The translations under genes were made by a program, and so were the position numbers. Shown here in pieces: positions 44,228 to 47,128 of a stretch of DNA of 64,000 nt (positions within the stretch are counted from its first letter, which is position 1; each line of letters begins with the position of its first letter). The DNA is taken from NCBI RefSeq assembly GCF_054482595.1, contig NZ_CM137008.1. One strand, 5' to 3'. Below the pieces are notes generated by a model that was not told where the DNA came from, searched no databases, and saw only the letters and a program-made list of their open reading frames with translations.

Positions 44228-45159
44228 AAGTATTTTATGAAGGAGCAACAGCATCGATTTTTATTTTGGAAAATAAATACGGCATACTCAACCTATTGGA
44301 GCCTGAACAATCCGGTGACTTCTGCGCTAATCGGGGACGTTTATAAGCACATATAATTGATACTATCTTCCTCCATCACAATTTCAGAAATGCACGTGTG
44401 ATTTTTTTGCATCCGGCGTTTGGACTATGTGGAGTTCAAGAGTGGGAAAGTTACAAGAGGTTGAGGGGATAATTAAAGGGATGCTTATGACATTAGATAT
44501 CCGGATAGGTACGGATATCGTTGTTATTAAATCTAGTTTATACGTTAAGATGCAGCTACAGCAGAAATTGCCATTGTTAATTTTTTCATCGTGAGCCCTT
44601 TTATTTGTACTATTATTTAAAAATGATGTCACTGCACTACAAATACTCATCTAATCAATGAGATTATTTCAAGATTTAAGTTTTAGTTTCTCATTTAAAT
44701 TGTGAAGTAGATCCCTCCTTTTATCTGAACTGTTTCTATTGCACACAATGCATGACTATTTTGTGAACGAATATAAATTTGGTAATCAAATTATATTAAA
44801 GGTTGTTATTTATGATTGACTCATAATTTATTTTTTTTAATTTAAATAGCCTAAAAATAACCATGGAGATTATTTGCATGATATTTGTTTAGATTTGTTA
44901 ATGTAATTGAGGTGATTTTATTTAATACGCAATATAGCGCCGCTTGATATTAGTTCTATTTTTTTGCGTAAGATAGATGAGACAAACTGAGACGCATAAT
45001 GGTTTGCAAGGCTCTAATACTTTGATGTTGAGGATGTGATGGGGCATGTACGGGGCATAGTACAATGATGTCCATGCAGGTGTAGATAATCTCCAGGCTT
45101 ATCCAGTGCGCCGTAAAACCCCGTCCTTCAGGGCGGGGATATAAGGCTCGGTTTTTCAC

Positions 45160-45591
45160 CTAACCAGGTGTTTGCTGTTGTTCAATGTATTGGCGGATGA
45201 CGGATATTGGCGCACCTCCGCAGCTACTGGCAAAATAGCCGGGACTCCACAAAACGCCTTTGTAGTAATACCTGACTGCAATATCTGGTCGATCTCGTCG
45301 CAGTAATCTACCCGATACGCCTTTGAGGCTGTTTACCAGACTGGATATCGCCAGTTTGGGAGGATAGTTAATTAACAAATGGACGTGATCTGGTTCGCCA
45401 TCCATTTCAACCAGTTCAGCTTCAAAATCAGCACATACATTTGAAAAGTAAGTGCGTAGTTTTTCTGTCGCGTCATGGTCAAAAATCTGACGTCGGTATT
45501 TGGTGACAAAGACCAGGTGAACATGCATCAGGAAAACACAGTGCCTTCCACGCCGGATATCGGTTTCTTTTTTCACAGACCAAAGTATCAT
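45160..45591 (-). CDS. tnpA: IS200-type Y1 (HUH) transposase TnpA
   Basis: HVHLL HUH motif and C-terminal tyrosine region (YYYKGVLWSPGYFASSCGGAPISVIRQYIEQQ); the true start may be an internal Met. Confidence 0.85.
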   Translation of the reverse strand: MILWSVKKETDIRRGRHCVFLMHVHLVFVTKYRRQIFDHDATEKLRTYFSNVCADFEAELVEMDGEPDHVHLLINYPPKLAISSLVNSLKGVSGRLLRRDRPDIAVRYYYKGVLWSPGYFASSCGGAPISVIRQYIEQQQTPG

Positions 45592-45598
45592 TTGGCCT

Positions 45599-46417
45599 GT
45601 GAAACGACTACAAGCATTTAAATTCCAGTTAAGACCCGGTGGTCAACAGGAGCGTGAAATGAGGCGCTTCGCAGGCGCATGTCGTTTCGTTTTCAATCGT
45701 GCTCTGGCGCTTCAGAATGAGAATCATGAGGCCGGTAATAAATACATCCCTTACGGGAAAATGGCTTCCTGGTTGGTTGAGTGGAAAAACGCCACTGAAA
45801 CGCAATGGCTTAAAGATTCGCCCTCACAGCCATTGCAACAGTCACTGAAAGACCTTGAGCGGGCTTACAAAAACTTCTTCCAGAAGCGGGCTGCTTTTCC
45901 CCGATTCAAAACGCGGGGACAGAATGATGCATTCCGCTACCCGCAGGGCGTTAAGCTCGATCAGGAAAACAGCCGTATTTTTCTGCCGAAACTTGGCTGG
46001 ATGCGCTACCGGAATAACCGTCAGGTCACGGGTGTTGTGAAAAATGTCACTGTCAGCCAGCCGGGGCGCAATGTCCGGGCAAAATCAGGTTTAAACCGTT
46101 CGATACTGGATCAGGGCTGGTATGAAATGCGCCGTCAGCTTGAGTACAAGCAGCTCTGGCGTGGCGGTCAGGTGCTTGCTGTTCCGCCAGCGTACACAAG
46201 CCAGCGTTGCGCGTGCTGTGGTCATACAGCGAAAGAAAATCGCCTGTCACAAAGTAAATTCAGATGCCAGGTATGTGGATATACAGCGAACGCCGATGTA
46301 AATGGCGCTCGTAACATTTTAGCGGCGGGGCACGCCGTTCTTGCCTGTGGAGAGATGGTGCAGTCAGGCCGCTCGTTGAAGCAGGAACCCACCGAAATGA
46401 TTCAGGCGACAGCCTGA
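45599..46417 (+). CDS. tnpB: TnpB-like protein with apparent internal deletion of the RuvC-I/RuvC-II core; predicted nuclease-inactive
   Basis: 272 aa versus the usual ~400; N-terminus typical of TnpB (QAFKFQLRP...[15 protein letters not shown]); C-terminus keeps the CxxC..CxxC zinc finger and an ADVNGARNI RuvC-III-like motif; no GxDxG/E segment in between. Confidence 0.7.
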
Positions 46418-46456
46418 ACGTAGCAGGGATCCACGTCCTTCAGGGCGTGGAGGATG

Positions 46457-47128
46457 TCAACAAACAGGTTGAATTAACTCCGCGCCCTGGTTTTTGACAT
46501 TACCTACCGCGCGCGATACCGGGTGCCAGGTGAACTGGTTTGCTGGCACACAGCCACTGGCAGCGATTTCTGAGGCTTCTTTACCACCAATGTCTTGCCG
46601 CATCCATTCCCGCGCAGCTTCTGGCGACAGTACCAGCGGGCGGCGGTCATGAATATCTACCAGACCCTGGTCTGCTGCTGCAGTGACAATTAAAAATCCT
46701 TCGGCTTCGTCACCACGCTCAAACGGTGTGCTACCTATCGCGGCCATAAAAACAGGTTGTCCATCAGCGCGATAGATAAAATAAGGCTGTTTTTTGTCGC
46801 CTTCTTTTTTCCACTCAAACCAGCCATCGGCAAAACAGATTGCCCGACCATGTTGCCAGAGCGGTTTAAACATACGACTGGTTGCCGCAGTTTCTACGCG
46901 GGCGTTAATCAGCGGCGATTTATCCCACCATCCGGGAGCATATCCCCAGAAAACCGGATCCAGATGAAGGTGTTCATCACGTTCACTGAGCAGAAGAACT
47001 TTGGTTCCCGGCGCGACGTTGTATCTGCCAATGGGTTCGGGATCGTAGGGAATATCGCGTTCAATATCTTCCGCGAGAAGCGCAAGGTAATCTTCACGCG
47101 TTTGGGATTGGGCAAAGCGTCCACACAT
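46457..47128 (-). CDS. yedK: SOS-response-associated peptidase (SRAP/HMCES family; abasic-site DNA-protein crosslinking)
   Basis: 223-aa ORF beginning MCGRFAQ with the catalytic Cys at position 2. Confidence 0.9.
   Translation of the reverse strand: MCGRFAQSQTREDYLALLAEDIERDIPYDPEPIGRYNVAPGTKVLLLSERDEHLHLDPVFWGYAPGWWDKSPLINARVETAATSRMFKPLWQHGRAICFADGWFEWKKEGDKKQPYFIYRADGQPVFMAAIGSTPFERGDEAEGFLIVTAAADQGLVDIHDRRPLVLSPEAAREWMRQDIGGKEASEIAASGCVPANQFTWHPVSRAVGNVKNQGAELIQPVC

Follow-up and report, generated by a model that had tools for sequence, protein, structure and literature searches.

An internally deleted IS609 copy at the 3′ end of yedK: exact ends, target and subterminal hairpins

Positions 45103-46460 of the 64,000-nucleotide stretch of contig NZ_CM137008.1 (RefSeq assembly GCF_054482595.1) analysed here, hereafter the window, are a copy of IS609, an insertion sequence (IS) of the IS200/IS605 family. 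The element is already known and annotated, and its architecture is typical of its family; it is the anatomy that is refined here. The copy has its top, active strand on the + strand, is internally deleted (1358 bp as against 1748 bp at full length), lies 3′ of the tetranucleotide TTAT and supplies the stop codon with which the adjacent DNA-repair gene yedK now ends. Taken as a whole, our reading is that IS609 inserted 3′ of TTAT by ‘peel and paste’ of single-stranded DNA, that its two subterminal hairpins are the sites of its transposase TnpA, that the insertion converted the yedK stop codon and that hairpin sequence probably has a second use in a guide RNA; we hold this reading with high confidence. 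The identity of the element, its ends, its target, the stop-codon conversion, the internal deletion and the covariation of guide and target bases are taken directly from comparisons of natural copies and sites. An earlier note on this DNA, made from the sequence alone, had recognized the hairpins and their family, and had drawn the ends a few nucleotides away from where they are placed here. The exact ends, the target TTAT, which is likely also the transposon-associated motif (TAM) of the accessory nuclease TnpB, and the guide tetranucleotides of IS609 can now be set from natural sites, empty as well as filled. The main value of this is in accuracy of annotation, and knowledge of the IS200/IS605 family is left unchanged by it. 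No description of the ends, target or TAM of IS609 was found in the searchable literature, in which the papers that name the element are annotation lists.

Thousands of matches to the region occur in complete E. coli genomes, where RefSeq labels the products as an IS200/IS605 family transposase (in some cases ‘IS609 family’) and as RNA-guided endonuclease InsQ/TnpB. Three 1748-bp copies, at the yedK, TetR and ydcO loci, are 97.4-98.1% identical to the window copy over 1358 aligned bases, apart from a gap of 390 bp, and one of the three is annotated as ‘IS609 family transposase’. The ends follow from comparison with an uninterrupted yedK locus (L001), the check that had been proposed in the earlier note. 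At the junction this locus reads ...CTCCAGGCTTAT|CAAACAGGTTGAAT..., so that the empty site is GGCTTAT|CAAACAGG; the ends are thereby placed at 45103 and 46460 and the target motif is TTAT. Copies at three other loci read TTAT|CC(A/G)GTGCGCC...GGAGGATGTCAA|, followed by unrelated flanks, and GGAGGATGTCAA is the right terminus of every copy examined. Since the junction TTAT|CAAACAGG is present in the empty site and the same boundaries recur in the other copies, the element comprises 45103-46460 and was inserted 3′ of TTAT with no duplication. No target-site duplication is seen between empty and filled sites at yedK, ydcO or the TetR-family gene. ‘Virtual’ empty sites, made by joining the flanks at the inferred boundaries, were also found as contiguous sequence in E. 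coli genomes, the TetR locus in one piece at 100% over 90 nt and the ydcO locus likewise, with one mismatch. The TTAT at 45099-45102 (+ strand) lies outside the IS and is taken as the left cleavage site (CL) and predicted TAM; it is found at 47 of 55 independent sites. The last four nucleotides of the IS, TCAA (46457-46460, + strand), are taken as the right cleavage site (CR); they lie 10 nt from the foot of the right hairpin and form a terminus common to all copies. Of 5426 complete E. coli genomes, 667 have the insertion junction at yedK.

The consequence of this geometry for yedK (46457-47128, minus strand) can be read directly. On the yedK strand, the empty site is CCT GTT TGA TAA, giving 222 codons (669 nt in the RefSeq annotation), and the filled site is CCT GTT TG|T TGA (672 nt in the RefSeq annotation). 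The insertion split the native TG|A stop; the complement of the IS-terminal TCAA, TTGA, completes a cysteine codon (codon 223, TGT) and then provides a new TGA. YedK is therefore one residue longer, 223 rather than 222 amino acids, and the NCBIfam profile PRK09951, which has 222 positions, matches its residues 1-222. This agrees with the 222 residues given in the earlier note for the K-12 protein, and means that the 223-residue YedK of 12% of complete E. coli genomes is a one-residue extension made by the IS. The same note had the right end abutting the yedK stop codon; the stop lies inside the IS, its TGA being the complement of TCAA. It had also suggested that the insertion had probably replaced the yedK terminator, a suggestion that is not upheld, as a terminator scan found no terminator-like site downstream of yedK in the empty locus and called neither of the two subterminal hairpins in the window. 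No U tract follows the right hairpin when it is read on the yedK strand. As a separate observation, tnpA is co-oriented with yedK, and readthrough from yedK would cross tnpB in antisense before entering tnpA in sense. Between yedK and tnpA, the minus strand has a terminator-like hairpin (45809-45791); such sites are no more numerous than in shuffled sequence.

The landing at yedK has parallels. Among 29 independent sites whose right flank is readable, seven (yedK, ydcO, L015, L083, L061, L105 and L098) have at least 100 open codons that end at a TGA supplied by the IS. In ydcO, which carries the K-12-type IS609, CGA TAA (NR*) has become CGA TAT TGA (NRY*), the same conversion. Complemented in the same frame, TTAT gives A-TAA and TCAA gives T-TGA; because of this match, a gene on the opposite strand that ends xxA-TAA keeps its open reading frame (ORF) when the element inserts. 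We read the pattern as one of motif arithmetic and survivorship: under a model in which insertions survive if they fall outside long ORFs or at their stops, such landings are expected at 15.6% of sites, and the observed number is unexceptional (P = 0.15). It could be argued instead that the end motifs of IS609-type elements have been selected for harmless insertion at gene ends, and that an evolved ‘stop-codon landing pad’ strategy, rather than survivorship, is behind yedK, ydcO and similar cases. Were this so, an opposite-strand gene ending xxA-TAA or in a tandem stop would keep its frame with at most one residue changed or added, and the TnpB RNA would have a guide segment that is complementary to such a gene and convergent with it. 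We regard this proposal as doubtful. An active preference of IS609 for stop codons, as opposed to chance insertion followed by survival of the harmless cases, has in its favour that 3.5% of the TTAT sites in the window would give such a landing, as against the seven of 29 observed (P = 5e-5). This enrichment vanishes, however, under the survivorship model with its expectation of 15.6%, and preservation of the ORF is automatic from the TTAT and TCAA motifs themselves; a preference of this kind was rejected as a candidate and we consider it unlikely to explain the position at yedK. Motif arithmetic with survival of harmless insertions is the account that we retain.

The two hairpins are central to the assignment of the element to its mechanism. 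The left subterminal imperfect palindrome (IPL, ccccgtccttcagggcgggg) is at 45119-45138 and the right one (IPR, ccacgtccttcagggcgtgg) at 46431-46450, both on the + strand and exactly where the earlier note had put them. IPL begins 16 nt from the left end and has an 8-bp stem, with a T.G pair at stem position 6/15 and a TTCA loop; IPR ends 10 nt inside the right end. Allowing up to three mismatches, the sequence CCNCGTCCTTCAGGGCGNGG occurs in the 64-kb window at these two sites alone, both on the + strand, where shuffled sequences give an expectation of 0.03. A repeat search reported the hairpins as a 21-nt direct repeat with 90% identity, and no terminal inverted repeat in the window element. 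As single-stranded DNA (ssDNA), the + strand forms at each site an uninterrupted stem of eight pairs, one of them T.G, with a 4-nt loop; the complementary strand would have a C.A mismatch at the T.G position. Folding of both ends, which had also been proposed as a check, gave the 8-bp stem in each case, and the context of the right end is more stable than expected (z = -3.97, with 0 of 200 shuffles as stable). Hairpins are present in every other copy examined, and are kept in relatives of approximately 77% identity from Klebsiella, Serratia, Erwinia, Providencia and others. Across these relatives stem position 3/18 is C-G in the left hairpin and A-T, C-G or T.G in the right, the change from C-G to A-T between IPL and IPR being compensatory. 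Many old E. coli copies have single stem mismatches; both stems are intact in the window copy. The stem is thus supported mainly by palindromy, position and conservation.

What is known of such hairpins comes from IS608, whose TnpA binds subterminal imperfect palindromes in ssDNA (PMC3201880). On its left side IS608 is cut 3′ of TTAC, at a distance of 19 nt 5′ of the hairpin, and on its right side 3′ of TCAA, 10 nt beyond the hairpin in the 3′ direction; these cleavage sites are picked by tetranucleotides located 5′ of each hairpin foot, the left one being AAAG, which is paired with TTAC (PMC3201880). In the window, the predicted left guide tetranucleotide (GL) is AAAA, at 45115-45118 on the + strand immediately 5′ of the hairpin foot, and the predicted right guide (GR) is GGAT, at 46427-46430 on the + strand (GAAT in relatives), again 5′ of the foot and positioned as in IS608.

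The relationship between guide and target was followed in 55 independent left flanks, retrieved from collections of genomes and metagenomes by a left-end pattern in which any base was allowed at the four guide positions. Where the guide is AAAA, the flank is TTAT in 47 cases, TTTT in one and TTAC in one; where it is AAAG, the flank is TTAC in three cases, TCAC in one and TTAT in one. The fourth guide base therefore covaries with the fourth base of the target (AAAA with T at 48 and C at one; AAAG with C at four and T at one; Fisher p = 7.8e-5, 55 sites). This is direct comparative evidence, drawn from natural flanks, that IS609-type elements follow the targeting rule of IS608. One supportive case is imperfect: in L007, on a Salmonella plasmid, the TTAC lies one base farther out than expected, possibly owing to a 1-nt insertion in the linker. 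A different arrangement is seen in L005, on a Klebsiella michiganensis plasmid (151-190; 77% identical), where ATAT stands on both sides of the left hairpin, lengthening the stem by 4 bp and replacing the AAAA guide positions, and the flank is still TTAT; the rule may be implemented differently in that relative.

By homology with IS608, both the binding of TnpA and the chemistry of cleavage can be sketched for IS609. The Y1 HUH TnpA would bind the two + strand hairpins in ssDNA, and AAAA on the left and GGAT on the right would select TTAT| and TCAA| through base interactions. Insertion would take place by peel and paste of a single strand 3′ of TTAT, leaving no target duplication. Excision would be expected to rejoin the donor as GGCTTAT|CAAACAGG and to yield a circle closed at ...GATGTCAA|CCAGTGCG. 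GC skew on the + strand, taken over the window, is +0.04, a value that would fit a top strand serving as lagging-strand template, but single 8-kb blocks differ in sign.

The transposase itself looks intact. The tnpA gene (45160-45591, minus strand) encodes an intact 143-residue Y1 HUH transposase with H69/H71 and Tyr135. It matches Pfam Y1_Tnp over residues 18-139 (E = 2e-42) and NCBIfam transpos_IS200 with 148 bits against a cut-off of 55, and it has both the HVH motif and the tyrosine within RQYIEQQ. These matches agree with the proposal in the earlier note that the hairpins are subterminal palindromes of the kind recognized by Y1 transposases in the IS200/IS605 family. The protein differs by three substitutions from an annotated IS609 TnpA. 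In L002, a full-length copy at the yedK site, and in L004, of the K-12 type, tnpA is interrupted by a nonsense codon at position 96.

The state of tnpB (45599-46417, + strand; stop codon at 46415-46417) is quite different. Alignment with L002, L003 and L004 reveals an in-frame deletion of 390 bp, or 130 codons, which the earlier note had not reported. It lies between two copies of the 9-bp direct repeat GTCAGCCAG, of which one is left, at 46052-46060 on the + strand. The predicted protein has 272 residues rather than 402. NCBIfam and Pfam searches give a guided_TnpB profile match for TnpB; Pfam OrfB_IS605, located at residues 162-277 of a 402-residue relative, is absent from the 272-residue protein. 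The deleted segment holds the catalytic motifs GLDAG (with its Asp) and IEDL (with its Glu), so that the complete D, E, D core of the RuvC domain is no longer present. The deletion junction is found in 30 of 5426 complete E. coli genomes. An allele that combines a dead TnpB with an intact transposase and intact ends offers a natural test of whether TnpB guards IS200/IS605 elements against loss. Between the two genes, whose divergent starts are 7 nt apart, a 14-nt inverted repeat (TTTCACAGACCAAA / TTTGGCCTGTGAAA, 93% complementary, arms 6 nt apart) spans window positions 45571-45604; it may be an operator or a structure for translation control.

TnpB is relevant to the hairpins since, in the models for ISDra2 and ISGst elements, its RNA is derived from the 3′ end of tnpB and the right end of the element, with the last ~16 nt coming from the flank, and TnpB cuts the empty donor joint beside a TAM that is identical to the target of TnpA (PMC8612924; bioRxiv 10.1101/2023.03.14.532601). 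A comparable guide-RNA scaffold (omega RNA, or right-end RNA, reRNA) is predicted here at 46322-46460 on the + strand, its 5′ limit being uncertain, overlapping the 3′ end of tnpB and the right end of the IS. RNAalifold applied to 10 right ends gives four stems from ~46322, three of them with compensatory changes, and the right hairpin as the terminal one. Rfam models match sub-threshold at 46290-46473, namely RAGATH-18 (29.5 of 44.9 bits), HgcC (22.3 of 50 bits) and sot0042, RNA families that are associated with TnpB. By analogy with the ISDra2 and ISGst systems, IPR probably doubles as the final stem of the guide RNA for TnpB. The earlier note had expected, by family convention, that a guide would be transcribed from the flank, at the yedK terminus; an ISDra2-type model agrees and predicts as the 16-nt guide segment CAAACAGGTTGAATTA (46461-46476, + strand), which is antisense to the last yedK codons. 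TTAT followed by CAAACAGGTTGAATTA is the empty donor joint in L001. With TTAT as the TAM, this guide would find its match in the empty yedK site only, and TnpB would thereby perform ‘homing’, a role assigned, like the guide RNA itself, by homology. The tnpB deletion ends more than 250 nt upstream of the predicted scaffold, which is therefore retained; given the loss of the RuvC core, the predicted guide RNA of the window copy could be used only by TnpB made elsewhere.

Whether the hairpins act mainly as RNA has to be considered in the light of both sets of results. On this account the left hairpin would be a tnpA terminator on the minus strand (stem plus UUUUAC) and the right one the 3′ stem of the TnpB guide RNA. 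The left hairpin is indeed followed by TTTTAC when read on the minus strand, and the right one forms the last stem in the RNAalifold consensus and lines up with the terminal stem of the HgcC model. Against this, the two hairpins differ little and point the same way in an element whose tnpA and tnpB are divergent, they are spaced from the cleavage sites as in IS608, and neither was called by the terminator scan of the window; moreover, the bases beside the left hairpin covary with the target, which is explicable only by a role at the level of DNA. An exclusive RNA role is therefore not likely, and a mainly RNA-based one strikes us as highly improbable; use of the hairpins as both DNA and RNA is likely. 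The remaining alternative, the geometry of the earlier note in which the IS spans 45095-46456, stops short of an unaltered yedK stop and displaces the yedK terminator, is correct in that the right hairpin ends 6 nt before the stop codon at 46457-46459 (minus strand), and BLAST matches of other copies do start variably at 45093-45099 as flanks match by chance, but it misplaces the left end by 8 nt and the right end by 4 nt and is already refuted by the empty-site comparisons at yedK, TetR and ydcO, the junction assigning TCAA to the IS and splitting the native stop, the TCAA terminus being identical at every other locus, yedK having 222 codons at the empty site and no terminator-like structure lying downstream of it there, so that we give it virtually no credence.

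Several points weigh against the overall interpretation of an IS608-like element with doubly used hairpins. The scheme by which GR is paired with CR in IS609 is taken over from IS608 and should be regarded as an analogy, and the left linker is 16 nt in IS609 as against 19 nt in IS608. A GC skew over 64 kb is a weak pointer to the direction of replication. The folding of the ends was unequal, the 66-nt context of the left end not being exceptional in folding energy (z = -1.03), and for this reason the case for the left hairpin is made by its identity to the right hairpin and its conservation. Covariation within the hairpins is thin, with one compensatory pair in 20 distinct variants and a score that was reached by 23 of 500 shuffles. 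In the Rfam search no match reached its gathering threshold, and the three sub-threshold matches are taken as hints only. Finally, IS609 never transposed in K-12 mutation-accumulation lines (PMC5009759), an immobility that fits the codon-96 nonsense mutation in K-12-type tnpA.

Some further sequences deserve mention in their own right. Palindrome-associated transposable elements (PATEs) are gene-less derivatives of IS200/IS605 elements, and a PATE-like relative of IS609 is seen on a Providencia rettgeri plasmid (L010, 151-629), where a 479-bp derivative has both ends and both hairpins and no intact gene. Much smaller gene-less elements of 46 nt, of the form TTAT|...TCAA|, consist of a 16-nt left linker, one hairpin and a 10-nt right tail. 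They occur at 14 of 31 sites with a readable right flank, at loci L022, L023, L029, L052, L053, L061, L065, L081, L083, L084, L092, L095 and L105. Those of the E. coli type have a chimeric hairpin, with the 5′ arm of the left and the 3′ arm of the right hairpin, as is expected from deletion between direct-repeat hairpins; this structure is equally compatible with a minimal mobile element. One such form is carried by an E. coli plasmid, and an O157:H7 chromosome may have a similar one. No 46-nt scar was present at the yedK site in the 5426 E. coli genomes, and in-place collapse is thus not documented at this locus. A sequence at the ydcO site of E. coli HH45 (L027, 145-187) was left out of the analysis; in it, TTAT is followed by 18 nt of poly-G and then by no more than the final 23 nt of IS609 on the right, and it is probably either a decayed remnant or an artefact of assembly. 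Between a ybcM-like regulator and yedK, the window lacks at 44548/44549 a 1222-bp segment that is present in L001 (725-1946) and holds most of an ompC-like porin gene.

Amongst known systems, the closest is IS609 itself under its ISfinder name, the K-12 copy of which (the insQ/tnpA pseudogene next to ydcO) has 97-98% identity, the same ends, the target TTAT and divergent tnpA and tnpB. The K-12-type copy also lies in a stop codon, that of ydcO, and supplies a TGA. The window copy differs from it in its position at yedK, in its intact tnpA, which in the K-12 type has a stop at codon 96, and in the 390 bp missing from tnpB. The likeness to IS608 of Helicobacter pylori extends to subterminal palindromes on one strand, a 10-nt distance between TCAA and the foot, tetranucleotide guides lying 5′ of the feet, and insertion 3′ of TTAN with no duplication (PMC3201880). 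IS608 differs in using TTAC with AAAG, where IS609 has TTAT with AAAA, and in the length of its left linker (19 nt and 16 nt, respectively); in IS609, tnpA is divergent from tnpB. A search of the literature found no biochemical study of IS609 TnpA. With ISDra2 and ISGst2 the window copy shares tnpB at the right end, an expected guide RNA that combines the 3′ end of tnpB, the right end and ~16 nt of flank, and a TAM that would be the same as the TnpA target; the TAM of ISGst2, TTTAT, is close to the TTAT of IS609 (bioRxiv 10.1101/2023.03.14.532601). In contrast to those elements, the window copy has no nuclease core, and its predicted guide RNA could act only with TnpB provided in trans. The likeness to PATEs is in the gene-less relatives bounded by TTAT| and TCAA|, of 479 bp in Providencia and as single-hairpin 46-nt forms at 14 sites; unlike PATEs, the window copy retains tnpA and most of tnpB.

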